DNA of 63,199 nucleotides, counting the filler. It is 4 parts of 4 records of this genome, joined end to end, with 100 filler letters (N's around TTAATTAATTAA, not from the genome) between each part and the next. Parts side by side here need not be neighbours in the genome. Positions count along the whole stretch, not along the records: positions 1 to 15,107 come from DRR723986_12560; 3 more parts are not named here. One strand, written 5' to 3'. Positions 1 through 53,616 of this stretch are shown in pieces (position 1 is the stretch's first letter; each line of letters starts with the position of its first letter). The position numbers and the translations under genes are program-made. The notes under the pieces are model-generated. The model had not been told where the DNA came from, searched no databases, and saw only the letters and a list, made by a program, of their open reading frames with translations.

Positions 1-270
1 TCATGCAGAACGAACGTAGTGAAGTGAAGCCTCTTTTTATTAGGTATGAGATTCTTCGCTTACGCTCTGAATGACAGTAGTGATGTGAAGCCTCTTTTTA
101 TTGAAATGAGATTCTTCGCTTACGCTCTGAAATCGCAGATTCGACGTAGTCAATGACGGTGGTGATGTGAAGCTTCTTTTTATTAGGTATGAGATTCCTC
201 GGCGTTACCCTTTGTTGGAAACCGAAGGTTCGGCTTTGCCAAATCGAAGATTCGATGTAGCCAATGACAT
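1..270. repeat. Tandem REP-like palindromic repeat cluster (3 copies, Bacteroidetes-type)
   Basis: Unit GTGAAGCYTCTTTTTATTRRRWATGAGATTC starts at 24, 85 and 167, and each copy ends in AATGAC. Copies 2 and 3 carry inserted ~21-nt hairpin modules. Confidence 0.8.
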
Positions 271-511
271 TGGACTTTGCTTTGCTCTTAATGACACAGG
301 TCTTTGATTTATAGGAATGAAAAAGATTTTATTATATGGTTTGCGCCTGTCTAAGTTATGATTTAGCTTATCAATTTAAAGTACGTCACTCAATGTAAGC
401 TGCGATAGTGGATTGTATTGAGCAGACACATAGAGTGATTATTAAGTATAGTGGAAATTGCGTTATAAAAAATATATCTATTTACCCTTAATTAAACATT
501 TTCAGTTTGTA

Positions 512-958
512 TTAAGGTCTTAAAAAGACACCATAACCTATAATTTTAATATTGTCATTTTTAGATTTTGTTAGTGCTATTTTTATCATAGCATTATCTT
601 CTTCAAATACAGCATTGTAAACGAAAGTATATAGATTTGATGCTTTTGCATTATCTGTAACAACAGTAGACCATTCAACTAAGTTAATGTTTTTAAGGGT
701 TCCAATTTTTGTTTTAATGGATTCTAAATAGTTTAGGAGCTCTGTTTTTGTAGTAGTTTTATAAAATTGTTCAGAGAACAAGGTTGTTGTTTTTTGAAAA
801 TCAGAGGTTTTTAAAATATCAAAGAGTTGGTTTACTATGTATTCGGCTTCAATTTTATCAGTAATTCTATTATGGTGGTTTTCACTAAAATGGCAGCTAA
901 TAAATAATAGTGATAATAGATATGTTGGTATACTTACTAAGTGTTTTTTTAGATTCAT
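512..958 (-). CDS. Hypothetical lipoprotein
   Basis: 148 aa; signal peptide ending in lipobox LLFISC. Confidence 0.7.
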   Translation of the reverse strand: MNLKKHLVSIPTYLLSLLFISCHFSENHHNRITDKIEAEYIVNQLFDILKTSDFQKTTTLFSEQFYKTTTKTELLNYLESIKTKIGTLKNINLVEWSTVVTDNAKASNLYTFVYNAVFEEDNAMIKIALTKSKNDNIKIIGYGVFLRP

Positions 959-988
959 AATCTAAATGAATTGGATTTTTAGATGTCT

Positions 989-2134
989 TTATTGTGATTT
1001 AATAGTCTTTTGCATAACAAAATAAGTAATAATCATTGGCAGCTGTGGTGCAAAATACGAGAATGGATATTGATAAAGAATCATATAATTGTAGTTAAAG
1101 GATATAATTGTCACAAATAAAAGTGGGAATGCTGTCCATAGCCATAGAAGAAGAAAATGGTTGTTTTTGTTTTTTGAAAAATGGATTGAGTATAATAATC
1201 CAATAACAAAAAGACCAGTAAAAACAACAACTGTTTTTATGCTTAACAAGTTAAGACCTTTACTAATTAATAATAATGGTGTATATCTCGGCGGATCGAT
1301 GGAATAAAAAACCAAATGTATGCTTAAGATCATTAATGAAATTATAAGCGTGTATTTTAACCATAAACTTATTTTTCTGGCGCAAAACAATAGTCCAAAT
1401 AAAGGCGCCAGATATATAAAAATAACTCTTGAAGTTAAAGTCATCGCTAAAACTATAAGAATAAAGAGCTTAGAGGCTACAGGTAAATTTTTATGCCATT
1501 TAAGAACAGGAAGTATGCATAAGATGCCAATTACAATTAAGTCCGATCCATTTGTCATTAATTCCCAAAAAGCAGGTGAGCTGATTAATAAAAGCAAAAA
1601 TAAGTTGATTATCTTGATGCTTTTGGTAGCTTTAAAAATAAAGTAAGTTAAAATACCAACAAATGCAGGTGTAATAAGAAAATAAGCCTTAACAAATATA
1701 AAGGGTAATAAAAGTAATATCAACCCTGGACCTACTGACGCACCTGGGTTTAAATATGTATTCACCGCGTAGGGGGATATTTCTGATATTAAGGCATTTG
1801 CAACAGCAATAATTGCGTCATCTGAATCAGATCCTCGCATAAAGTTTTTTTTCGCATCTAGAATGGGATAAACATAATAATTAACGATCACTATAAGTGC
1901 AAGTATCAACAGTGTAATTATTAAGCTTTTAGAAGCTTTTAAATATAGTTTATGATTTGAAGTTAATATAAAATGATAGTAAAGGCCTGCAAATACAAGA
2001 AGTATTGGAATTGTAATGGTGTAGCTGGCAGGTGATAATTTGTAAATTACTCTTAAGGAAGGTATTTGCAGAAAAGTGAATAAAATTAAAAATGAAACAC
2101 GTTTTGAGTATATTGTGGTAGTTAATAGTTTCAT
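989..2134 (-). CDS. Polytopic membrane protein, GT-C/GT87-like glycosyltransferase fold
   Basis: About 10 hydrophobic segments; loop motif GSDSDDA...PY...TYL...GPG..LLLPF resembles GT-C-like proteins. ATG at 2134 preferred over TTG at 2140. Confidence 0.55.
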   Translation of the reverse strand: MKLLTTTIYSKRVSFLILFTFLQIPSLRVIYKLSPASYTITIPILLVFAGLYYHFILTSNHKLYLKASKSLIITLLILALIVIVNYYVYPILDAKKNFMRGSDSDDAIIAVANALISEISPYAVNTYLNPGASVGPGLILLLLPFIFVKAYFLITPAFVGILTYFIFKATKSIKIINLFLLLLISSPAFWELMTNGSDLIVIGILCILPVLKWHKNLPVASKLFILIVLAMTLTSRVIFIYLAPLFGLLFCARKISLWLKYTLIISLMILSIHLVFYSIDPPRYTPLLLISKGLNLLSIKTVVVFTGLFVIGLLYSIHFSKNKNNHFLLLWLWTAFPLLFVTIISFNYNYMILYQYPFSYFAPQLPMIITYFVMQKTIKSQ

Positions 2135-2340
2135 TTTCAAATAACTTTAATATTATGTAAGATGTTATAAATAGCTTCTAAATAACTAGTAAAATGTTAA
2201 TATAACTAACTGATAGATAATTAGATAATTAATTTTTTTAATCTGTAAATATAATTACATCATTTTAAAAATAAATGAATGTGTATAATTCTATTGCTTA
2301 AATGGTTTTTTAGCGCAATTTATTTGCTATTATAATTATT

Positions 2341-3366
2341 CTAATCTATTTTTTTCTTTTTTAACATCATAAATACGTGTGCTCTGTAAAAGGGATTATT
2401 TACTACAAGTGTTAAACGCTTTTTTATAAATAAGATGCTGTGCTTTATTCTAAATATACTTTGGCCTAAAGGTGGGAACTTCTGTTTTATTTTATAAGAC
2501 AATAATCGTATAGAGTTATAATTTGTATTAGCATCTTTGAGGTAATACTCAAAAAGTAAAAGATATGATTTACCAAATTTTAATTTATTTAAGTATGCAA
2601 TGGCATTTTGGTTATTGTTTAGGTTTAAACATAAACTATCATAAAAAGGTTTTAAGCCTAAAATATTATAATAGTGTGCATGGTCATTAATTTGATAGCT
2701 TAAAACTTGAGATAAACACATATAAAAAGGGCTGGGAATACTAAATCCATTATTTATAATGGCACTTTCTAAAACAGTCTTAGGTAAAATAAGTTTATCA
2801 TTTGGTTGGTTAAAAAGTGCACTGTGAACTTCTATAGCGGCTAGTTCTTTAGGGTTGATAAGCCGATCTTCATGTCTAAATCCGATGGTCTCATAATTGT
2901 ATCCAAAGGTCTTAGTATAACCATTAGATCTAATAATTCCCATAGTGTATGGGATTTGTTTTTGGTCTACTAGTATATCTATATCCCCAATCATCCGCTC
3001 GCCAAAATCGTTATAGTAACCAGCAACTAACAAAGCGGCGCCTTTTAAAAAGACGTGGTTAATATTGTTGGTTTTAAGCAGCTGGCTTAAAGCGTCTATT
3101 TGTTTAAAAATAGTATTATTTCTGTTTCTGTTTATAGCAGTTAAATCGTGTAGGTAGATTTTGAGATCTTTGGGCAGTACCTGTAATAATTGTTTTTGCT
3201 GTAAACGGCAATATACCGTGGTTAATACCAGGTGCTCACTGGCTATTTTAACCAAATTCTCCCAATCTGTATCGTTAAAGTTGCGCAACCTAGTCTCTAA
3301 TGCGGTCTCATTAGCGGTAAATGCCAATATTTTAGCTATAAGTTGTTTGGTGGCGTGCGCAGACAA
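2341..3366 (-). CDS. Nucleotidyltransferase family protein (NTP_transf_5-like)
   Basis: Motifs LKGAAL...YY...R.IGDIDILV and IEVH; N-terminal DWENLVKIASEH helix typical of this family. Confidence 0.85.
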   Translation of the reverse strand: MSAHATKQLIAKILAFTANETALETRLRNFNDTDWENLVKIASEHLVLTTVYCRLQQKQLLQVLPKDLKIYLHDLTAINRNRNNTIFKQIDALSQLLKTNNINHVFLKGAALLVAGYYNDFGERMIGDIDILVDQKQIPYTMGIIRSNGYTKTFGYNYETIGFRHEDRLINPKELAAIEVHSALFNQPNDKLILPKTVLESAIINNGFSIPSPFYMCLSQVLSYQINDHAHYYNILGLKPFYDSLCLNLNNNQNAIAYLNKLKFGKSYLLLFEYYLKDANTNYNSIRLLSYKIKQKFPPLGQSIFRIKHSILFIKKRLTLVVNNPFYRAHVFMMLKKKKID

Positions 3367-3426
3367 TACGGTATTATATTTTAGGTAAATATACTATAAA
3401 AAGCTTGGTCAAAAAGTGAGGGTCAC

Positions 3427-4539
3427 TTAAAATAAGCTGTCTATAGCTGCAATGGCCTCTGCATTATGGTGGTATTTTAACTCATAGAAATTAACGGTTC
3501 CCAACCAGTCTAAAAAAGATTGAGCGTGGTGTTCGTTATGGGCCAACCACGATTCCGTAATGAGTTCTTGAAGGATGGTTTGTTCTGCGCCTTTTGTTAG
3601 AGTGGTTGTTATGGGGTCTTGGTTGTAGCGCACCAATACGAGGTTTTTACAAGGGTAATCTAATTTCTCGGGGTGTTTTAAAGGTAAAGGTGGTATATAG
3701 GTAACCCGGCCTTTGGTACTATTAATGTATTGTTTAGGTAAGGCCTCAAAATTAGCTACTAAAGGCGCAATGGTATCAAAGGCCTTTTCTTTAATCGATA
3801 GGGCTGCCGGTAATACGGCGATATGGTTGTTTTCTGCTAGCATCGCGCTCATATCATCCGCCACCAGATCATAACCAGCATACATGAGTAAGGCGGCCAG
3901 GGTGCTTTTGCCACTGCCCGAGTTGCCCACCAGCATCACGGCCTGCTCACCATTGCCAATAGTGGTGGCATGAAAGGTGCCTATCCAATCTGCCTCTGTT
4001 TTTTGGTGAATGCAGTTTAAAACTTCAAATGAAAATTTGCCTTGAAATAGGTGTACATTTTTGGTCTCCCAAGTCCAGGCTGTACCTTTATTATTTTCTA
4101 AATAATACCCCTGGTTCTTTGTTTCAATAGTTAGTGCAGTAGACCTTAATAATGGCTTAGTTTGCAAATGGCCGAACTTATGAATTACCGCATCTAATGT
4201 ATACGCAGCATCATAATTAATACCTATATTTATGGAATGATAATTTAGAAACCATATGTGACTTGCTAATCCCTTATTACAGGGATTACATTGGTAGGGA
4301 TCTAAAGTTGGCGCATCTTTAGAAAGGTTGTAAAAAGTATCAAACAACTCATTAATGGTAGGCGCTGTATTAAAATCTTTAGCTAATGTCTTATTAAAAT
4401 CGTTTTGAGAAGTCGTTAAAGTATATGCTTTAAAATAACCGTAAGTTAGTTCATCTAAAACTAAATAGGTGTTAGAGGTAGCAAAATAAACAAGATTTAT
4501 AGATTGTATTTGCTTTTTTATTATACTCCGTGTTGCTAT
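3427..4539 (-). CDS. HPr kinase-related kinase with putative N-terminal PqqD/RRE-like domain
   Basis: FHAT, Walker A GNSGSGKST and LVADD motifs. The frame stays open upstream of the TTG at 4347 up to a stop at 4552-4554; start tentatively placed at ATA 4539. Confidence 0.75.
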   Translation of the reverse strand: MATRSIIKKQIQSINLVYFATSNTYLVLDELTYGYFKAYTLTTSQNDFNKTLAKDFNTAPTINELFDTFYNLSKDAPTLDPYQCNPCNKGLASHIWFLNYHSINIGINYDAAYTLDAVIHKFGHLQTKPLLRSTALTIETKNQGYYLENNKGTAWTWETKNVHLFQGKFSFEVLNCIHQKTEADWIGTFHATTIGNGEQAVMLVGNSGSGKSTLAALLMYAGYDLVADDMSAMLAENNHIAVLPAALSIKEKAFDTIAPLVANFEALPKQYINSTKGRVTYIPPLPLKHPEKLDYPCKNLVLVRYNQDPITTTLTKGAEQTILQELITESWLAHNEHHAQSFLDWLGTVNFYELKYHHNAEAIAAIDSLF

Positions 4540-4590
4540 AACTAGCGTTTTTTAATTATTGAAAATAAACTAATAGATGCATTTAAATTA

Positions 4591-4758
4591 TTAAGTTGAT
4601 CCCGGTAGATTAACATCTGCTGGAGACTCAGCACTATTCGCTTGTACTTTTTGAGGATTTAGTATAACAAAGGTACCTAAAGCAGTAATAGCAGCATACT
4701 TCCCCATTTTTTTTATGGCTTCTTTGCGTGTTATTTGGTTTTTATCAATTTTTTTCAT
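4591..4758 (-). CDS. Small secreted peptide with Tat-like leader (candidate precursor peptide)
   Basis: 55 aa: MKKIDKNQITRKEAIKKMGKYAAITALGTFVILNPQKVQA-NSAESPADVNLPGST. Has a TRKEAIK twin-Arg-like motif, a hydrophobic core and a VQA cleavage site. Confidence 0.7.
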   Translation of the reverse strand: MKKIDKNQITRKEAIKKMGKYAAITALGTFVILNPQKVQANSAESPADVNLPGST

Positions 4759-4778
4759 AATTCTTATACAATGCAAAA

Positions 4779-4786
4779 CAAAAGTA
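4779..4786 (-). promoter_or_regulatory. Bacteroidetes -7 promoter element upstream of the peptide gene
   Basis: TACTTTTG on the minus strand matches consensus TAnnTTTG, 20 nt upstream of ATG 4758. Confidence 0.5.
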
Positions 4787-4833
4787 ATACATTTAATTCT
4801 AATCTAGAAAATTTATATCTTCTTTACAAAAAA

Positions 4834-6612
4834 ATGTCAAATATCGTTTTTAAAACTATAGAAAAATTATACTACAAGAAAATAGATGCCAATGGTTTAG
4901 CTATTTTCCGTATTAGTATAGGTCTTGTTCTATTTTGGGAAGTGCTACAATTATTTAGGTACCGCCATCTCATATTTGATAAGATTCCGTATATCAGTTT
5001 TACCAATATAGATTTTAAATACGCTTTGTTATTGTGGTTATTGGTAATTACCTGTCTTATTTTAGGCTTGTTTACTCGTATTTCTGCCATAGTTAACTAT
5101 GTATTGTCATTGGTGTTTTTTGCCACTATAGATAATTTTGGTAATCATATGCTTAATGTGTTAATGTCTATTAATTTTTTGTTAATGTTTACAGATGTCA
5201 GTAGGGTGTTATCTCTTGATGCTGTTATAGCGAAACTAAGAGCAAAAGACTTTAATCTCATAGAAACCAAGGTGTCTGTATTACATTATTATAGTTTTGT
5301 ATTTATGGCTTTGGGATTGGTTTATTTTACCTCGATGTTTGATAAATTATTTACGGACTATTGGCGCAATGGTTTAATTTTGTTTAAAGTTTTGTCATTA
5401 CCAGGTGAATATGCAAGGTTTGATTTTTCATTTCTTTTGAATTACAAACCTTTAATGCAACTAATAGCATATACAGTCCTTATTTTTGAAGGTGTTTTTA
5501 TTTTTATTTGTTTTAGTAAACGATTTAGAGTTTATACCTTTATTATTGGGGTATTAATGCATCTAGGTATTTTAATTTGCCTACCAATTTCTCCATTCGC
5601 TTTTGGGTTTTTAAGTTTATATGTGTTATTAATACCATCTTCATTTTGGAAAGTATTAAGAGTAATCTTGAAATCTAAGAAGAAAATCCCTTTAGTTGTC
5701 AATGCTAATTTTATTTGGGCAAAAGAAATAAGCGTACTAATTAGTAGTCTTGATTTATTTAACAGTTTTGAGTGTCGTTTGGTTCATATATCCTCGAGTA
5801 ATTTTGAAAATATTAACGATTACACTTATGTTTTTATTAAAGCACCCAAAGGCAACATTATAGAGCAAGGTCTTGTAATGCGCTATTTAGCTTTGCGAAT
5901 ACCCATATGTATGCCCATAGTATTATTAACATTTATTCCTTATGGTGATAGAATTATTAAAAAATTTATAAAATTAATTTGTATAGCATCTTACAATAGC
6001 CCTCATATTTTAAAAAACAGAAAATTTAACCCATACAAAATAAAAATTATTGGTTTATTTTTTCTTGGTATTATTTTTTTACAAGGGCATGCTTTATTGG
6101 CTACTAAGTTTTCGCGCCATGTAGGTTTACCAACTCACAATAAGCAGATTTTACATGCCTCAATGTCGCTTTTAGGAATAAGTAATCATAGTATTTTTAC
6201 TCATAATTACGAGAAATATAATACCCAGATATATTCTATTGGTATCGCTAAAATAAGTGATGCAAAAGGTGAGATTTGGTTGCCCTTATCAGATAGGGAA
6301 GGTAAGCACGGCTATTATAAAAATGACCCAATACGGAGAAAAGCCTTTTTTGCACTTAAAGGTTTTGAACTTGATAGTACTCTTTTAAATAATTACGTCA
6401 GGGATTATACGGCATTTTGGAGTTTTAATAATCATGTAGATTTAGACCATGCTAGTTTTAATGTTTATATTAAGAGGCTTCAAATCCCAGATACATGGGA
6501 AAAAGACGTCTACAAAAAGAACTTAGATAAAGCGTGGGTCCCTCTTGGCAGAGTGGTGTGGAAAGATACCATTTATAATACAGAGTTAGATCACCTAAAG
6601 CTAATTCCATAA
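4834..6612 (+). CDS. HTTM-domain (vitamin K-dependent carboxylase-like) membrane protein with degenerate DCC1-like central region
   Basis: LAIFRI, LILGLFTR, YF..MFDKL...W..G and GVLMHLGI motifs of HTTM proteins. ATG at 4834 avoids overlap with the peptide gene. Confidence 0.7.
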   Translation: MSNIVFKTIEKLYYKKIDANGLAIFRISIGLVLFWEVLQLFRYRHLIFDKIPYISFTNIDFKYALLLWLLVITCLILGLFTRISAIVNYVLSLVFFATIDNFGNHMLNVLMSINFLLMFTDVSRVLSLDAVIAKLRAKDFNLIETKVSVLHYYSFVFMALGLVYFTSMFDKLFTDYWRNGLILFKVLSLPGEYARFDFSFLLNYKPLMQLIAYTVLIFEGVFIFICFSKRFRVYTFIIGVLMHLGILICLPISPFAFGFLSLYVLLIPSSFWKVLRVILKSKKKIPLVVNANFIWAKEISVLISSLDLFNSFECRLVHISSSNFENINDYTYVFIKAPKGNIIEQGLVMRYLALRIPICMPIVLLTFIPYGDRIIKKFIKLICIASYNSPHILKNRKFNPYKIKIIGLFFLGIIFLQGHALLATKFSRHVGLPTHNKQILHASMSLLGISNHSIFTHNYEKYNTQIYSIGIAKISDAKGEIWLPLSDREGKHGYYKNDPIRRKAFFALKGFELDSTLLNNYVRDYTAFWSFNNHVDLDHASFNVYIKRLQIPDTWEKDVYKKNLDKAWVPLGRVVWKDTIYNTELDHLKLIP

Positions 6613-6648
6613 AAAAAGAGGACCTCTGAAGTAAAAGTCCTCATAAAA
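6611..6648. terminator. Probable terminator between convergent genes
   Basis: GAGGAC/GTCCTC stem preceded by an A-tract. Confidence 0.5.
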
Positions 6649-6668
6649 GCATTGGGGTATTAGTGGTG

Positions 6669-8912
6669 TTATGATATTATGACCTTCTTAGAAGTTACTT
6701 GGCTTTTATTTTTAAGTTCTATAACGTAGATGCCTGTATTTAGACTAGAAACATCTATATGGTTTGTTGTATTAAACGCTTCTATTGTATGTTGAGATAC
6801 AACTCGGCCATTAACATCGTAAATGTAAAGCTGAGAGGTTTCTGTTAATTCTCCAGTAATACGTATTTGTTTTGTGCTATGTATAGATGTAATAGCGATT
6901 GTATCTAAATGTACACTAGAAGCAGATAGTAATGCATCAGTTTCAAAATGAATATAAAAGCGCCCAAATCCAGAAGTTGTTTCTGTTAGGTTTAAAGTGT
7001 AGGCAGCGCCAGAAGTTAAATCAATCCACTGTTCTAAATCTCTATCCTCTAACCAAACTGTTGTATCAAGAGGGATATCAATATGATCTATAGTAAATGT
7101 TATTTGATCTCCATTTTGAGCGTCAATACCTATGGGTATAATACTTTCTTCTGCATAATTTAGTGGCAGAGTTTGAATTGCTAATTGTTCATCTGAGGTA
7201 TTATCTATTAAGGTAGAATACATATTAAAATTGGAGTTACCATCAAATATATAAGTGTCATATCCAATATCAAAGGCCTCAGTAACGTTGTCACTATCAA
7301 AAAAATAAAATTGGGTATGTCTAACATCATCACCATTAGAAAGATTTAATCTTAATTTATATGTGTTAGTATCGCTATTGTTTGTGAAATTTTGAGCAGC
7401 ATTAGCACTAGACCTTGTAGTACGCATACTTGGTGTAAAATTAATGATAGCATTATCATTTTTAGCTGCTACATAAAAGCCTTGTCCTGGTGCTATATTA
7501 ACATTATCCACTATGGCGCTGGCAAGGTTATAGTATTCATGGGTTTCTTGATCTGTATTATTATTGTATGCAATTAAGGCGAAGTAGGCATTGTCTATAG
7601 ATGCGGCGTTGGCTTGTAAAAAATCACTAACGTTTAAATAAGAGGTGTAAGGATTGCCAACAACATTCCATGAAGTTTGTACTTGGTGTAGAGTAACACT
7701 AGTACCTTCAGTCTCAATGTGTCCTGTAAATCTTACTGTCTGGCTATTATTTGGGGGTGTAGCTATAGCATAGCCATTACCAGATAACATATGAGATGTA
7801 GAGGTTATAATAAGAGGATCGTCCCAACCATGCCCACCATTGTTATAGGGGTTAACCGCAAAAAATGTCCCATTGTTTAAAATAGATGAAGCGTTGTTGC
7901 TTAAAAAATCTGCAATGATTTCTCCGCTAACAGGTGGCGCAATAATATCCATATCATTGGGATCAAACTCAAAATCATTAACCCACTTATCATAATGAAT
8001 GGTGCCAGTCGCTGTGCCATTAACAATTAAATTTGAAGATGCATAAGCATCAGAAGACATAACAACAGTTCCCGTGTTTATAAAATTGTTATAGACTGTA
8101 AGCGACCCCGTTTTTTCAATAATTAAATCGCCTAAAACAGTTATATCCGATATTATATTATCACTTATGATTTTTAGTTCATTATTTTCTGGAATAATGA
8201 TATGCATACTCTCGTTAGGTATTACACCTAGAGACCATAAAGATGCATTGTTTATAGAATCTAAACTATGCCCTAGCCATGAATTTTCTTGGGTATCAGT
8301 AGTTACAGAAATTTTTAAATTATCAACAAACAAATAGCCTTGTATATCATTTGCATCAATCCTAAGTCTTAGTTTACAGTTAGTATTAAAGTTGAAATTA
8401 TTTGCATTTAAAGCTATTATCTCTTTAAGACCAGAACTATTGGGGCCACAATTACCATTATTAAAATCCGTACCATTATTGTATTGTTTTATTGTAGTCC
8501 AAGAGTTTCCGCCATCTGAGCTAATTTCTACATACCAACGTTCATCATTATTTAAGCCATCTACAAAATAATCATATTCTATAATGACCGATTCATAAGT
8601 AGATAAATTCAAAATAGATGATGTTAAAGTGCCATTATGGGTTAATTGAATAATATTTGCTGCGAAAGCGTTAGTACAAGCGTATCCTTCTAGGTTAGGT
8701 AGATTAGAGATGTCAGATACATCAATAAGTGATGTATTTAAATGGTCTTTAGACCAGATACTATTTGTAGAATCAAAAGTATCATTATTTAAGACGGTCT
8801 GACTTGCAATAAAACAGGTATTAAAAATTAAAATGATTAAAAGCAGAGCTGCTTTTAGAGTTGAACTGTTTTTTAATAAACTTGCAAAACGATGTAAGAT
8901 TAGCATTGTCAT
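6669..8912 (-). CDS. T9SS type A sorting-domain protein
   Basis: C-terminal IYDVNGR...L.TGIYVI...KKVII CTD; signal peptide begins at M30 of the listed ORF (8912). Confidence 0.85.
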   Translation of the reverse strand: MTMLILHRFASLLKNSSTLKAALLLIILIFNTCFIASQTVLNNDTFDSTNSIWSKDHLNTSLIDVSDISNLPNLEGYACTNAFAANIIQLTHNGTLTSSILNLSTYESVIIEYDYFVDGLNNDERWYVEISSDGGNSWTTIKQYNNGTDFNNGNCGPNSSGLKEIIALNANNFNFNTNCKLRLRIDANDIQGYLFVDNLKISVTTDTQENSWLGHSLDSINNASLWSLGVIPNESMHIIIPENNELKIISDNIISDITVLGDLIIEKTGSLTVYNNFINTGTVVMSSDAYASSNLIVNGTATGTIHYDKWVNDFEFDPNDMDIIAPPVSGEIIADFLSNNASSILNNGTFFAVNPYNNGGHGWDDPLIITSTSHMLSGNGYAIATPPNNSQTVRFTGHIETEGTSVTLHQVQTSWNVVGNPYTSYLNVSDFLQANAASIDNAYFALIAYNNNTDQETHEYYNLASAIVDNVNIAPGQGFYVAAKNDNAIINFTPSMRTTRSSANAAQNFTNNSDTNTYKLRLNLSNGDDVRHTQFYFFDSDNVTEAFDIGYDTYIFDGNSNFNMYSTLIDNTSDEQLAIQTLPLNYAEESIIPIGIDAQNGDQITFTIDHIDIPLDTTVWLEDRDLEQWIDLTSGAAYTLNLTETTSGFGRFYIHFETDALLSASSVHLDTIAITSIHSTKQIRITGELTETSQLYIYDVNGRVVSQHTIEAFNTTNHIDVSSLNTGIYVIELKNKSQVTSKKVIIS

Positions 8913-9198
8913 TCGATTTGGGTTAGAATTACAAGCAAATATGAATAGATAATAGATAAAATGCAAATAAAATCGACAAAATACATTATATTTTAACATT
9001 TATAAAGCCATTTTATATCTAAACCTGGAAGTAGTTTAATTTGATTTAGAATTTTTTTAGAAAAAGCACGCCTTAATTAAAAATACAAATCGTTAAGCAG
9101 ATAATTGGATAGTTTAATGAATTGACGACAAACTCAAAGTCTTACTTTATTAAGATCATTGACAGAGATATGTTGCCATAATTGAGTGTTGCAAGAAT

Positions 9199-9236
9199 AA
9201 AAAAGGTCCCTAAAACCTGTGTTTTAGAGACCTTTT
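9199..9236 (-). terminator. Rho-independent terminator
   Basis: AAAAGGTC-CCTAAAAC...GTTTTAG-AGACCTTTT hairpin downstream of the 14568 gene. Confidence 0.7.
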
Positions 9237-9258
9237 AAATTTGCTATAATATTTTGGC

Positions 9259-12200
9259 TTAGTTAATAATAATTTGTTTGGACACTTTTTGCGTGTGGTT
9301 GCGAATAGACACGATGTAAGCTGCCGTTGGCAAATGCCTAGCATCGATACGATGTGTTGTCGTGTAGCGCTCTAAATTTTTAGTAAGCACCTTGCGGCCA
9401 TTAATATCATATAATTCTAAAATAGAATCAGTTTCTAAGTTTCCGTTAACAACTATTGTCTTATTACCTGAGATAGAAACTATATTAATCTGATTTGTCT
9501 CAACTTCCTTGATGTTTAAAGTATCTCCATTCTCAAAATGTATGTAAAAACGTCCTGTTCCCGAAATGGTTTCTGTAGTATTTAATATATATGTAGACCC
9601 GTCATTCATTTCTGTCCAAACTCCAGTTGCTCTATCTTCTAGCCAAATAATAATATTATCTGCAATATTAAGATTATCAATACTGAACGTAAGTTGCTGG
9701 CCAGCTTGCGCCTCAACACCAACAGGTATAATACTCGTTTCCATATTATCTAAATGACTGGTTTGTATGGCTAATTTATTAACTGTACCATCTAATGGTG
9801 TTGAGTATAAATTAAAGTTATCACCATCATTTTTTATTAAGGCATCATAACCTAAATCAAAACTTTCTGACACGTCATCTCTGTTAAAGAAATAGAATTC
9901 TGCATGTCTTGCTTTATTACCGTTATTGATATTTAGTCTTAACTTTTGCATATCTAATACTGCAGAACGTGCACCATCTTGTAAGAAATCATCTGCACCA
10001 GAAACCGTTTTCATACTTGGTGTAAAAGTAACTGTAACGTTATCAGTTTTTGCAGCTAAATAGAAGCCTTGGCCAGGTGCTATAGTCACATTATTTGCTG
10101 TAGCCGTAGCTAGATTATAATATGCCCATCCATCGGTATTGTTAACGCCATTGTAACCAAGAACTAAAACATACCCTTCATCTAATACTGCTGTGTTAGC
10201 CTGAATAAATGCTGCAAGGTCAATGTAAGTAGCATACGGGTTGCCAACTACATTCCAACGGCTTTGATTACGACTTAATTGCACAGTAACGTCACCGTTT
10301 ACTAATTCTCCTGTAAATTTTACAGTTTGACTGTTTCCTGCCGGACTTGCAACTCGGTATCCTAAGCCAGACTCGATCGTTGTATCTGTTGATGAAGTAA
10401 ATAAATTACCCCATCCTGTACCACCATTAATGTAAGGGGTGAATGACCAGTACGTACCATTATTAAAAATAGAGGACTGATTATTTGCCATTACACTAGA
10501 CCAACTCTCACCGGTTACTGGCGATGCAATAACATCATTACCATTAGTACCTGCTTCAAAGTTATTTACCCAACGGTTATAAGAAATACTACCAGAAGCT
10601 TCGCCTTGTACCAGCAGACTAGAAAACTCGTCGTGTCCAGAATTTAAAATTGTAGTCCCAGTATCAGTATTTTCAAAATTTTCTGTTGTGGTTAAAGACG
10701 CGTCTTTCTCAATAGTTAGCTCACCATCTACAGTAAAATTCTTTACCGTGACATCCCTATTATCAAATAATTTTAAGTGTGCTCCATTAGCAATTTTTAC
10801 ATTACTAGTTGATGTAGGCACCTCTTTGTAAGACCATTTTTCAGTATTTGTAAACACATCATTCTCATTACCTAACCAGTAGTTACCATCCGTTAACCTA
10901 ATATTATCTACTAAGTATTCTTCATTAGAGTCATGAAAAAATTCTATAATTATTTTTAAGGTGTTTCCTGTGATTGGGTTACCACTGGCATCAACTAAAA
11001 GCCAAGATTTGTTACCGTCTTGGTCATCTACATCACCATCAAAAGAAGCTACGGTTGGTGTAAAAGGAAAAATAAACTCATCTATCAGAACTTTGACTCT
11101 TAAGTAATCAGTATTTTCTGTTCCATCAAACTCTAAATAGGCGCTAAGCTCTAAGTCTGTCTTCCCTGCAATATTAATGGTGTTAGATTCCCATTTGATA
11201 CCTTCTTCATTATTATCTAAATCATCTACTCTAAATAATTTGTTACCACTTTGTGTGTCTACTCCAAAATAATTAGCTTGCCCATTTAAGGTAGCAGACC
11301 ATCCTATACCATTAACATCTGTACCTGTAATAGCCTCATCTGCTTCATCTTCAAAGTCTTCAAAAAAGAGGTATGGACTTTCTATTGGGGTTACCGTAAC
11401 AGTAACACCAGAGCTCCATGTTGTACCTTCTCTTGTAAAGGTTGTTAAATGATAGGTTGTACCATTGGTTAAACCTGTAATGCTTACTGTTTCTGCTGTG
11501 CCTTTATAGACTACATAGCCACCATCAAAAGGTGTACCAGAACCAAAAGTTGCACTAGCAGTGTAGGCAGAGCCGTCTCCAGATGGGGATGTAGTCACTG
11601 CGCTTCCTTGTTTGGCAACCACTAGTACTTCGTCTATAGAGACACAAGTAGCATTTGGGTTTGCCCAAGTAAGTGTCGCTTGGCTATCATCTGTTGTTGC
11701 GCTTGCACCGGTTACATTATTATCTACAGCATCACAATCTAAAGTTCCTGTTAGTTTTACGTCATCAATTTTAAACTGATCACTACTTGTTATAAAAGTG
11801 ATATAAATTTGTAAATTGTCTTCAGCAGTTAAATCATCCGTAAAACTAAATTCGTAAGCTGTATCATCACCTGATCCTCCACTTATTGTTGAGCTACTAC
11901 TATTTACAGATATTTTAGTGGTTCCATTATCTAAGCTGTACCTTAGTTTTATGATGTCTCCGCTTGATGCGCCTTCTCTTACAAACAAGCTTAATTTTAG
12001 ATTATCATATCCAGAAATATTGATAGGGTCTGTATACCAGTCAGCTTCTTCATTATTAGTACGATCTGCTTCAAAATGATGAACACTACCATCCTCATCT
12101 ACGGCAAACTCTACTGGATTGCTATTATTTGGATTTGTATACCATGCAATTTGGTTTACATCGTCTATACCAGAAATATCACCTTGATTTTCATCTTGAA

Positions 12201-14568
12201 AATCTTCATAAAATAAGTCTACAGGAGGATTTGTTACTGTAATATAGTCTACTTTAGTTTCTATATCACTTCCACAACTATTGGTGGCTGTAAGTGTTAC
12301 CGTGAAGGTGCCAGCAGTGTTAAAGGTATGGGTAGGGTTAGTTTGATCAGAAACAGGAGATCCATCGCCAAAATTCCAAGTGTAGCTAACTGCATTTGTA
12401 GAGTTATTAGTAAATGTTATTGATTCGCCTACTTCAATAGTTGTATTGTTAGCTGTAAAAACTGCTTCTGCTGGCGTATTTTCTGTTATTACAACCTCAC
12501 CTGTCATGGTTTGGGTACAGCCACCATCTGTGCGTGTTGCTACTACTGTGTAATTACCAGCGTTACTAAAGTCACCAAAATCAATAGCAGAACCTGTACC
12601 TGCTTCAGCATCACCAACATTGGTATCGTCTCTTAGTAATTGATAAGTAATACCCGTTTGTGAATTATTTAAGCCTATTGCGGTAGTATCTGTATCACCT
12701 GTACAATATTCTAAATTACTACCTGTTACAGCATATGTGATAGGTGCTACGCAAGGAACAAATGGTGCAAGAACACTACACGGTATCACTTCTGAAGGTT
12801 GACTAGTAGACTGCCCTGGTTTTGCCCAACCCACTGCTAAGTTATCAAGACCACCTCCTTCTTTCATTAAGGCTTCAATATAGTATGTTTCGCCCTCTAT
12901 AAGTGCTATAGATGCAGATTTTTGTGTAGAGTATTTATCCCATTGTTGAGGATTAGTCCAAAGATTATGATATGCAATCTTAACTCTATTAGAAGCATTA
13001 TTATCTGTACTTAACCATAGTTCTACATTGTCGTCACCAGCTATCCAAAATATATAATCACCTGTTTGTGGCGCTACAATATTTCCTCTAACTCTTACAC
13101 CGTAATTGTCATCTGTATTCGTCTCAATTTCAAAAGAAGTTAATTGTGATGTTGATGATGGGTTATTAGGGTAATTGCTGTTAGACGTTAAATCTGAAAC
13201 AAATGTACCTTCAATACCATCAAATTTCTCCATTAATAGGGTTTGATTTGAATCACAAGGAATTGTAATTGTTCCTGTAATTTCGATATCATCAAATGCT
13301 ATACCATCTGAGCTATCTCCAGACGTTGCGTAAAAATAATTATCATATTGGCCTAATCTAATTTGAAATGTTGAGGAGACAACTTGACCAGCATTAGCTA
13401 ATACAGCATCTATGTCTAAGTTAGTTATTTGGTTCCATTCTCTATCATCAAAATTTTTTGGTAAAATATCATAGATTTTTATCCAATCTGCCGTGTTGTT
13501 TCCACGAATCCAAACCGCATCACCATTGTTATCTTCATCATCGCCATCAAAGAACCAAAACGATAATTCTAAATCTGTTGCGGTTGTGTAATCAGATAAA
13601 TTTATAGTTTTTATTAAATGATTTTGTGTCCCATTGTTGTTATCATAATAATCTACATCTAAAAGTGCAGCCTTACTGCCGGTGTGGCTTACTTGGTCAA
13701 ATCTCAATCTACCTACATTATCTTCTTGATATTCCCAACAATTACCAACATTTGAATTACTAGTAGTATATGTACCGTCGTTATCTTCAAAACCTTCATT
13801 CCACGGTAATGTTACTGCATCTGTATCTGTACAAGTTATAGGTTTTAAGGCTATGTATATTGCAATCCATCTCTCATTGCCACTTAAATCAACTGAGCCA
13901 TCTTCTGTCTGACCTGCAGTATTAACTATTTTCCATGCTGCGGCTACCGTTGCGTCTCTACCACTGCTTGTATTGTCATCATATAATTCAGACAAACTAT
14001 AACCCCAATTATTGTGTGTTTTATTGTCATTTAGTTGTGTTAACATTATTAATGCACTGTTATCCGTGGTAGTGGTAATAGAATTAACTGAGATGCTGTT
14101 ACCATTACCACTATTTACATTTTTAATTATGTCCAAAGTACTTCCGCTCACATCAACTCCAGAGAAGGCTATTATACTTCCTATAGAACTATTGGCATCA
14201 TTGTCTATGTTAAAAGTATAACTGGATGGTTCTGAGCTGCCCGCTATTTTATACAAGACAGTACCTCTCCATCTATTATTACCATTATTACTTGTGTGAA
14301 TGTAATTTCCTTCAATCTCAGTCCAGCCACTTAATGAAGCATCATCTAAACTATTGCCATCTTGATCAGTTTGAACAATATTAACAATTAAAACGTCACC
14401 GGCAACTACTCCATTAGGTTTGTTAATGGTTAGATCTCCTGAATTGCGGTTAGCTGTTGTTGCACTGCCGCGTTGTGCTATCTGCCCATAAGACATGGTA
14501 GTGGCGGTAAATAACATTATAAATGTTAGTGTTAATCTAAACATTGAATTTAAGTAATTTGTTTTCAT
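9259..14568 (-). CDS. Large T9SS cargo protein with PA14 and PKD domains (adhesin/carbohydrate-binding)
   Basis: Signal peptide; PA14 motifs (DNYGVRVRG, IAGDDNVELWLS, MKEGGG); PKD (WNFGDG, PTHTF..AGTFTVTLT); type A CTD. Confidence 0.9.
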   Translation of the reverse strand: MKTNYLNSMFRLTLTFIMLFTATTMSYGQIAQRGSATTANRNSGDLTINKPNGVVAGDVLIVNIVQTDQDGNSLDDASLSGWTEIEGNYIHTSNNGNNRWRGTVLYKIAGSSEPSSYTFNIDNDANSSIGSIIAFSGVDVSGSTLDIIKNVNSGNGNSISVNSITTTTDNSALIMLTQLNDNKTHNNWGYSLSELYDDNTSSGRDATVAAAWKIVNTAGQTEDGSVDLSGNERWIAIYIALKPITCTDTDAVTLPWNEGFEDNDGTYTTSNSNVGNCWEYQEDNVGRLRFDQVSHTGSKAALLDVDYYDNNNGTQNHLIKTINLSDYTTATDLELSFWFFDGDDEDNNGDAVWIRGNNTADWIKIYDILPKNFDDREWNQITNLDIDAVLANAGQVVSSTFQIRLGQYDNYFYATSGDSSDGIAFDDIEITGTITIPCDSNQTLLMEKFDGIEGTFVSDLTSNSNYPNNPSSTSQLTSFEIETNTDDNYGVRVRGNIVAPQTGDYIFWIAGDDNVELWLSTDNNASNRVKIAYHNLWTNPQQWDKYSTQKSASIALIEGETYYIEALMKEGGGLDNLAVGWAKPGQSTSQPSEVIPCSVLAPFVPCVAPITYAVTGSNLEYCTGDTDTTAIGLNNSQTGITYQLLRDDTNVGDAEAGTGSAIDFGDFSNAGNYTVVATRTDGGCTQTMTGEVVITENTPAEAVFTANNTTIEVGESITFTNNSTNAVSYTWNFGDGSPVSDQTNPTHTFNTAGTFTVTLTATNSCGSDIETKVDYITVTNPPVDLFYEDFQDENQGDISGIDDVNQIAWYTNPNNSNPVEFAVDEDGSVHHFEADRTNNEEADWYTDPINISGYDNLKLSLFVREGASSGDIIKLRYSLDNGTTKISVNSSSSTISGGSGDDTAYEFSFTDDLTAEDNLQIYITFITSSDQFKIDDVKLTGTLDCDAVDNNVTGASATTDDSQATLTWANPNATCVSIDEVLVVAKQGSAVTTSPSGDGSAYTASATFGSGTPFDGGYVVYKGTAETVSITGLTNGTTYHLTTFTREGTTWSSGVTVTVTPIESPYLFFEDFEDEADEAITGTDVNGIGWSATLNGQANYFGVDTQSGNKLFRVDDLDNNEEGIKWESNTINIAGKTDLELSAYLEFDGTENTDYLRVKVLIDEFIFPFTPTVASFDGDVDDQDGNKSWLLVDASGNPITGNTLKIIIEFFHDSNEEYLVDNIRLTDGNYWLGNENDVFTNTEKWSYKEVPTSTSNVKIANGAHLKLFDNRDVTVKNFTVDGELTIEKDASLTTTENFENTDTGTTILNSGHDEFSSLLVQGEASGSISYNRWVNNFEAGTNGNDVIASPVTGESWSSVMANNQSSIFNNGTYWSFTPYINGGTGWGNLFTSSTDTTIESGLGYRVASPAGNSQTVKFTGELVNGDVTVQLSRNQSRWNVVGNPYATYIDLAAFIQANTAVLDEGYVLVLGYNGVNNTDGWAYYNLATATANNVTIAPGQGFYLAAKTDNVTVTFTPSMKTVSGADDFLQDGARSAVLDMQKLRLNINNGNKARHAEFYFFNRDDVSESFDLGYDALIKNDGDNFNLYSTPLDGTVNKLAIQTSHLDNMETSIIPVGVEAQAGQQLTFSIDNLNIADNIIIWLEDRATGVWTEMNDGSTYILNTTETISGTGRFYIHFENGDTLNIKEVETNQINIVSISGNKTIVVNGNLETDSILELYDINGRKVLTKNLERYTTTHRIDARHLPTAAYIVSIRNHTQKVSKQIIIN

Positions 14569-15019
14569 TTTTAAAGTATTTAGGTTAAGTTTTTTTGGTT
14601 TAAGATTTGAAATTTTTTTTGGAGGGATGACACAAATATGCAGTAACGTTTGTGCTTGAATACTACTTTTTGGATGAACTGCACAAAAAATAGTTGAATA
14701 AAAAGAGGTGTTTTATTTTATCGACGAATGGTAATTTTTAAAACCCAAAAAAAATTAAAAACTTGTAATACAGTGTTTTATAATATTTAATTAGTTGCTT
14801 TATAAGAGTTTTTAATGCCGTTTGAGAGTTTTTTTTTCGATAAAAGACTTTATTTTTTCGACCAAATGTAGCAGGTGTAGTGCTTATGTAAATTGGTTGT
14901 TTTTACGCATGTGTCATTCAACGAGTAATTGTTCGATGAAATGCATACTATGAGGATACTAAAAACTATGAAAGGGTCTGTTTTTTAGTTTCAGATGGTC
15001 CTTTAGTATGATTTTGAAG

Positions 15020-15107
15020 AAGCGAAGCGCAAAAAATAGTATCGAGATGTATCTCTATGTAACAAGCTGCTCTGTTTTCGATACACGCTTCGTCACCTCA
15101 GCGCACT
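15020..15107. repeat. REP-like palindromic element at contig end
   Basis: GAAGCG...GTATCGAGA pairs with TTTCGATAC-ACGCTTC; truncated by the gap. Confidence 0.5.
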
Positions 15108-15207
15108 NNNNNNNNNNNNNNNNNNNNNNNNNNNNNNNNNNNNNNNNNNNNTTAATTAATTAANNNNNNNNNNNNNNNNNNNNNNNNNNNNNNNNNNNNN
15201 NNNNNNN
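15108..15207. other. Artificial contig spacer
   Basis: N-run + TTAATTAATTAA + N-run; abrupt GC shift across it. Confidence 0.98.
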
Positions 15208-31704: not shown

Positions 31705-31804
31705 NNNNNNNNNNNNNNNNNNNNNNNNNNNNNNNNNNNNNNNNNNNNTTAATTAATTAANNNNNNNNNNNNNNNNNNNNNNNNNNNNNNNNNNNNNNNN
31801 NNNN
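31705..31804. other. Artificial contig spacer
   Basis: N-run + TTAATTAATTAA + N-run. Confidence 0.98.
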
Positions 31805-53516: not shown

Positions 53517-53616
53517 NNNNNNNNNNNNNNNNNNNNNNNNNNNNNNNNNNNNNNNNNNNNTTAATTAATTAANNNNNNNNNNNNNNNNNNNNNNNNNNNN
53601 NNNNNNNNNNNNNNNN
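53517..53616. other. Artificial contig spacer
   Basis: N-run + TTAATTAATTAA + N-run. Confidence 0.98.

Follow-up and report, generated by a model that had tools for sequence, protein, structure and literature searches.

The closest known system to the gene cassette described here is the linear polyphosphorylated peptide (LPP) pathway of Bacillota (Popov et al., Nat Commun 2026; PMC13381572). According to the parts of that paper available to us, its genes (LppA, K, B, S, D, and N) supply a precursor, an HprK kinase, a discrete recognition element (RRE) of the kind that serves peptides made by ribosomes and modified after translation (RiPPs), a SipW-like leader peptidase, an MsbA-like pump, and an NTP-transferase. 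The same parts report that LppK polyphosphorylates Ser3 of the core, that the unphosphorylated precursor is poorly cleaved, and that the leader, which carries a YxxPxVLxHQ-type motif for RRE binding, is removed by a signal-peptidase-like enzyme; they call the family restricted to Bacillota and its function there unknown. Our cassette lies in a window of 63,199 nucleotides, the whole stretch of DNA that was analysed, in which N spacers link four contigs; the genes under study are on the contig at 1-15107 only. The original prediction, made from the letters of the window, had placed three co-oriented genes here, encoding a peptide, an HprK-like protein, and a PF14907 protein, and all three were recovered at those positions, on the minus strand:

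4591..4758, minus strand: precursor peptide gene, 55 aa (open reading frame, family conservation)
3427..4551 (open frame), minus strand: predicted fusion of an RRE and an HprK-like kinase (open reading frame, homologues, structural model, profile)
2341..3366, minus strand: PF14907 (NTP_transf_5) nucleotidyltransferase-fold protein, 341 aa (Pfam match)

In common with LPP, the cassette has a linear precursor whose leader is conserved and whose core varies, together with an NTP-transferase and an HprK-like kinase that an RRE would guide, and it has no macrolactam cyclase; in both, a Ser that is modified or conserved lies two to three residues past the leader cut, and both also have signal-peptidase-type leader removal (here read from the leader sequence) and a cell-surface gene context. 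The two also differ. The LPP RRE is discrete, whereas that of the window appears fused to the kinase; LPP has an archaeal-type signal peptidase (LppS), whereas the corresponding model, TIGR02228, had matches in none of five Bacteroidota carrier genomes; the MsbA-like pump of LPP has no equivalent in the conserved window-type neighbourhood; the YxxP-type leader contrasts with a signal-peptide look-alike without YxxP; and LPP belongs to Bacillota and capsule loci, whereas the window system belongs to Bacteroidota and is found with type IX secretion (T9SS) cargo. We consider the window cassette to be a Bacteroidota counterpart of the LPP pathway with a probability of about 0.6. Four features were not part of the original prediction: the RRE at the N-terminus of the kinase, the Ser conserved at +2, the Lys at the second "twin-Arg" position of the leader, and the T9SS cargo link.

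Parts of this design are also found in other systems. In the paeninodin and pseudomycoidin systems, as far as the available excerpts go, an HprK-family kinase likewise acts before leader removal, with PsmK and PadeK acting on the C-terminal Ser (PMC6993621, PMC9266682), and the NTP-transferase PsmN puts one or two hexoses on the phosphate of the phospho-Ser, for which two Asp are required (PMC6993621). Their target is a C-terminal Ser and their export is by ABC transporter, whereas the window system is without a B2 peptidase and no cyclase was seen at its loci. The window nucleotidyltransferase (NTase) has a metal-binding-type G-D-I-D-I-L motif (nt 2971-2988) to set beside the two Asp of PsmN, the membership of PsmN and LppN in PF14907 being unconfirmed in those excerpts. 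The HPr-rel-A systems (NCBIfam TIGR04352 and TIGR04353), as represented by the Sphingomonadales locus L065, share with the window a PqqD-type domain, an HprK-related kinase, and a PF14907-like NTase that follow the gene of an exported protein; a literature search found no paper on these HprK-related kinase A systems. The window kinase reaches only 66.4 bits against the TIGR04352 cut-off of 200, the window gave no TIGR04353 match at E up to 0.1, and the sphingomonad substrate is a Cys-containing classical twin-Arg protein of 110-130 aa, in contrast to the 45-95-aa peptides of the window type.

The precursor family

The 55-aa peptide has the features that the original prediction listed, namely T-R-K-E-A-I-K, V-Q-A, and a 15-residue tail. 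Its leader (residues 1-40; nt 4639-4758) is composed of a basic n-region with T-R-K-E-A-I-K at residues 10-16, a 13-residue h-region, and the sequence N-P-x-K-V-Q-A, in which V-Q-A (residues 38-40) was assigned as the cleavage site by eye and from column counts. The core (residues 41-55; nt 4594-4638) is the tail NSAESPADVNLPGST, its last residues being S-T, and the conserved Ser42 is encoded at nt 4633-4635. Database searches returned a peptide family of 113 clusters with E down to 1e-20 (90% database), and the peptide profile found 424 representatives at E <= 0.001 (50% library). Because the family comprises 113 clusters and 47 of 52 related loci have the peptide, the 55-aa reading frame is, on this comparative evidence, far beyond chance and is best taken as a real, widespread precursor-like gene. 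Two metatranscriptome libraries, each from a different study, contain contigs that span 4318-4682 (97% alike) and 4383-4622 (99%), and these bridge the 3' end of the peptide gene and the N-terminal extension of the kinase. Since such contigs may include DNA carry-over, they count only as a weak hint that the peptide-kinase region is expressed, and the parts of the window that they leave uncovered are uninformative.

We counted residues by column over 157 distinct peptide sequences, in which the leader is conserved and the core varies. Arg11 was present in all 157, position -3 was A, S, V, or T in 155, position -1 was Ala in 138, and Ser occupied +2 after the AxA site in 150; Ser42 was invariant in the 58 aligned peptide sequences (58/58). 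A separate set of 146 more distant representatives had Ser at +2 in 121 of 123 aligned. Core lengths run from 8 to ~100 residues and include Gly/Asn-rich, His-rich, and Cys-rich types. On the same leader, a Draconibacterium metagenome-assembled genome (MAG) carries a 50-residue tail that is His/Gly-rich and then Lys/Arg/Gly-rich (L008, 7598-7873), and three further members (P0215, P0231, and P0243) carry Cys-rich tails that are 60-100 residues long.

The position of the conserved Ser bears on the likely target of the kinase. The window core ends in S-T, and PadeK and PsmK target a C-terminal Ser in the published excerpts, as would be expected if the kinase worked in the manner of paeninodin, phosphorylating the C-terminal Ser/Thr of the core, with the NTase building on that product. 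However, only 19 of the 157 peptides end in S or T, the commonest last residues being D (46), F (23), and G (21), and the sole conserved hydroxyl is that of the Ser at +2. The proposal that the C-terminal Ser-Thr is the target was thus not borne out, and we consider a paeninodin-style reaction very unlikely.

The peptide gene is co-conserved with the kinase. We compared the neighbourhoods of 52 Bacteroidota loci (L001-L008, L066-L077, L078-L097, and L098-L109), which include some near-duplicates and two pairs from one genome. As the original prediction anticipated for a true precursor, the peptide gene was found in 47 of them, directly upstream of the kinase, with a constant leader and a variable core; the NTase was found in 45. 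Five loci lack the peptide: L007 and L075, which have the kinase at a contig edge, and L002, L086, and L097. In 301 Flavobacteriaceae genomes, sampled evenly and counted without regard to shared ancestry, the kinase was present in 24 and the peptide in 26. The peptide was found in 23 of the 24 kinase genomes, and the exception has its kinase at the start of a contig. Carriers of the locus include Winogradskyella and Gelidibacter isolates.

The kinase, its recognition element, and the nucleotidyltransferase

Counted from the first TTG, the kinase gene spans 3427-4347, and its frame stays open to 4551. Homologues (n = 53), most of them 354-378 aa long, align over 93-98% of the 374 residues translated from stop to stop. 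Because the frame is open to 4551 and the homologues span the extension, we take the gene to be longer than called and the protein to have about 70 residues at its N-terminus beyond those of an ORF call based on ATG, GTG, or TTG. This extension is predicted to be an RRE of the PqqD/lasso-B1 type, spanning approximately residues 6-84 (nt ~4300-4536). A profile built from 41 homologues matched the lasso RRE of TbiB1 with an E of 1.6e-6 over profile positions 6-84, and the same profile matched TfuB1 (E 1.9e-5) and HprK (E 2.7e-4). Furthermore, the most distant kinase homologues carry PqqD (PF05402) ahead of the HprK-related domain, and an AlphaFold2 model of the kinase made with 41 sequences (pLDDT 92.7, pTM 0.90) starts with three strands and three helices. 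A Foldseek search with the whole model led to PEP carboxykinases (PEPCK) and HprK, and both the P-loop GNSGSGKST (nt 3901-3927) and an A-D-D motif (nt 3853-3861) are invariant among the homologues. A single kinase sequence found no loci in genome or metagenome contigs, whereas alignment queries did.

In two genomes (G062:C1:3440253-3441360 and G043:C29:232560-233665), an in-frame stop or frame change interrupts the kinase, and the cargo gene of L098 (1521-3845) carries an in-frame stop; these may be cases of decay or assembly errors.

The nearest solved relatives of the RRE are lasso B1 proteins, and the contig of the window is only 15.1 kb long, as could be the case if the product were a lasso or otherwise cyclised peptide with its cyclase and peptidase encoded elsewhere in the genome. 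Against this, the lasso B2 peptidase (PF13471) was found in none of 10 carrier genomes, five of them single large contigs, and no cyclase-like gene recurs in the 52 loci, the lasso cyclase itself not having been searched genome-wide. A cyclised product is for these reasons barely credible. No transporter or protease gene, an LppS-type signal peptidase included, recurs in the 52 loci either. The original prediction had pointed to the lack of a cyclase or leader peptidase on the contig; that observation is weak alone because the contig covers only 1-15107, and the absence of PF13471 from the genomes of relatives gives it more substance. Its wider proposal of a RiPP-like cassette without lasso enzymes, most likely making a linear modified peptide, holds up well in view of the kinase-peptide co-occurrence, the fused RRE, and the LPP analogue.

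The third gene encodes a PF14907 protein, as predicted, with an E of 2.6e-31 and 109.5 bits against a gathering cut-off of 31.2. No PDB entry is related to this NTase by sequence, and a phosphonate preprint that mentions PF14907 calls the family uncharacterised and says no more. In L001, L003, L004, and L005, the NTase gene is followed by a gene for a conserved signal-peptide protein of 186-197 aa (~10260-10890), which the window lacks and no NCBIfam model matches.

Neighbouring T9SS cargo proteins

Upstream of the cassette, the contig carries two genes for T9SS cargo and one for a membrane protein:

6669..8999, minus strand: type-A T9SS cargo, 776 aa (sorting domain, conserved C-terminal module)
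9259..14568, minus strand: second type-A T9SS cargo, 1769 aa (PA14, PKD, same C-terminal module)
4735..6612, plus strand: multi-pass membrane protein, HTTM/DCC1-like (language-model look-alike only)

Both cargo proteins are type-A T9SS proteins (Por_Secre_tail). The 776-aa protein has a conserved all-beta C-terminal module at approximately residues 280-700, which, along with the sorting domain, travels with the peptide gene; the 1769-aa protein has the same module at approximately residues 1270-1768. The shared module was modelled (pLDDT 84.6) as a chain of beta-sandwiches resembling adhesin or S-layer stalks. Foldseek returned only generic Ig/FN3-like adhesins, S-layer stalks, and T9SS sorting domains, giving no functional clue, and the Atlas look-alikes of the module were annotated only as "T9SS type A sorting domain".

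Of the 52 loci, 41 contain the module, and the genes mostly run in the order cargo, peptide, kinase, NTase. The kinase comes after the NTase in L072, L073, L076, and L077, but the cargo still adjoins the peptide. Among the 301 genomes, 30 carry the module, which was found in 24 of the 26 peptide-positive genomes compared to 6 of the 275 peptide-negative ones. In five single-contig genomes, wherever the module is single-copy it adjoins a peptide gene (3/3), G171 being one of these three.

This linkage could also arise if the peptide were a secreted or membrane-tethered partner of the cargo, with the kinase and NTase acting on cargo, glycan, or lipid and merely sharing the operon. Cargo-peptide pairs do persist without a nearby kinase, as in G171 and in the extra pairs of L003, L078, L089, and L092, and the LPP and paeninodin clusters sit, in the excerpts of their descriptions, in polysaccharide loci. 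Three observations argue otherwise: the kinase appears to carry a domain for peptide recognition with homology to lasso B1 proteins, it co-occurs with the peptide in nearly every genome that has it, and the conservation of the leader far exceeds the needs of secretion alone. We regard this explanation as unlikely, although less so than a paeninodin-style reaction or a cyclised product.

The multi-pass membrane protein (580-625 aa among its relatives) lies antisense between cargo and peptide in 14 of the 52 loci, all in the subclade of the window (L068, L069, and L098-L109). Its HTTM/DCC1-like assignment comes from an Atlas look-alike score of 0.97, and its true start is likely the ATG at 4834. 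Neither this 625-aa protein nor a 383-aa membrane protein had a Pfam or NCBIfam match even at E up to 10. The 383-aa protein and a downstream DUF3887-like lipoprotein were considered as members of the system and excluded, because neither recurs in any of the 52 loci.

The spacers of the window, at 15108-15207, 31705-31804, and 53517-53616, are N runs that flank a short AT stretch. GC content is ~0.31 at 1-15107 and 0.54-0.63 across the other three contigs; because of this jump, the later contigs may come from another organism or bin.

Export and the proposed pathway

By inspection and column counts, the leader has the n-, h-, and c-regions and the small residues at -3 and -1 that signal peptidase I calls for. 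Signals of the twin-arginine translocation (Tat) pathway follow the consensus S/T-R-R-x-F-L-K. The n-region of the window leader resembles this consensus and there is a Lys in its c-region, raising the possibility that, within the pathway that we favour, the leader works as a genuine Tat signal, with the RRE serving mainly as an export-proofreading chaperone until modification is done. TatC was found in the five carrier genomes searched (5/5). In addition, homologous peptides with a true S-R-R-E-A-L-K occur in an alphaproteobacterial MAG (L052 and L053), and that of L052 precedes a 400-aa PqqD-kinase fusion and an NTase. Locus L065, a bona fide HPr-rel-A system that passes both NCBIfam models (230.7 and 49.7 bits), has a gene for a 129-aa twin-Arg protein (7047-7436) overlapping the start of its PqqD gene, and a profile of this protein found relatives just upstream in 28 of 57 non-Bacteroidota loci, all 28 titled Sphingomonadales. 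None of these precursors matched an NCBIfam model. The Sphingomonadales proteins (110-130 aa, just upstream of the PqqD gene) have a classical twin-Arg signal, two conserved Cys, and the cut site A-L-A-Q/N followed by T-A-x-S-V.

In contrast, the residue after Arg11 in the Bacteroidota peptides is Lys in 143 of the 157 sequences and Arg in only 2, and it is elsewhere G, E, Q, T, A, N, or S; among the 146 distant representatives it is K in 108, R in 8, G in 8, E in 5, Q in 4, T in 3, and A in 2. A twin-arginine signal should not tolerate such variety at its second position. These results argue for a Tat ancestry of the leader, given its twin-Arg homologues, and argue against strict Tat use in Bacteroidota, where the second position varies freely. 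Because that position is Lys or other residues, Tat export is unproven here, and we hold the Tat variant to be doubtful, with a better chance than any alternative weighed above.

Starting from the observed gene anatomy, conservation, folds, Ser, and T9SS linkage, we infer each chemical step of the LPP-like pathway as follows. The 40-residue leader of the 55-aa precursor would double as a secretion signal. The N-terminal RRE of the kinase would bind this leader and place Ser42 in the HprK/PEPCK-fold active site, where Ser42, two residues past V-Q-A, would be phosphorylated, possibly several times. The PF14907 enzyme may then decorate the phosphate, as PsmN does with hexoses. Because the cassette encodes no dedicated protease or pump, Sec or Tat together with the housekeeping signal peptidase I would release the 15-residue modified peptide into the periplasm, where it would work in concert with the adhesin-like T9SS surface proteins encoded nearby. 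As a further step, the modified peptide could be a dedicated partner of the type-A T9SS proteins, its free N-terminus or phospho-sugar tethering the cargo to the surface; this is a long shot, the evidence for a tether being genetic linkage only. In Porphyromonas, according to the part of the literature seen, a seryl-sugar linker of A-LPS (anionic lipopolysaccharide) anchors T9SS cargo.

A number of observations weigh against the LPP-like reading. The window kinase scores under every curated cut-off, not only that of TIGR04352 but also that of Hpr_kinase_C (24.6 bits; cut-off 33.3), and no PqqD model of Pfam or NCBIfam matches the window protein itself. Among the profile searches that the original prediction proposed, PF14907 passed, whereas the HprK-related match was below its cut-off and PqqD gave none. 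Its description of the kinase as HPr-kinase-like stands as regards the modelled fold and not as regards the curated cut-offs; since the scores are below these, the results support a distant likeness. The first 68 codons of the extended kinase contain no ATG, GTG, or TTG, and translation from the TTG at 4347 would, if used, leave the kinase without its RRE. The closest relative with DNA available (L098, 75% identical) likewise has only ATT and ATA in the start region. Other relatives begin with TTG or GTG, and the aligned codon of the window is ATA (4519-4521), which is the probable start; this comparison suggests that a weak or non-canonical start is used and is apparently habitual for the enzyme. 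As for the loci, the kinases of L002, L086, and L097 are away from contig edges and yet have no peptide nearby; L002 and L086 retain the adjoining NTase, and in L097 the kinase stands by itself. Extra cargo-peptide pairs occur far from any kinase, and in G171 the pair is ~370 kb from the kinase-NTase pair. Finally, LppN itself had no detectable activity in a heterologous host, according to the same excerpts (PMC13381572).

If the LPP-like reading is true, the phosphorylated linear RiPPs, which were reported in 2026 as restricted to Bacillota, would reach marine Flavobacteriaceae, and would do so by a cheaper design in which the leader itself is the secretion signal and housekeeping machinery does both export and leader removal. 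Signal-peptide leaders may be a general feature of HprK-related systems, a lead to follow, and the exported twin-Arg proteins are candidate precursors for the proteobacterial HPr-rel-A systems. A peptide tether, if real, would be a peptide-based alternative to the A-LPS seryl-sugar linker of Porphyromonas. The conserved tie of the cassette to T9SS surface proteins is a second lead, and it would give LPP-like peptides a concrete, testable place of action.

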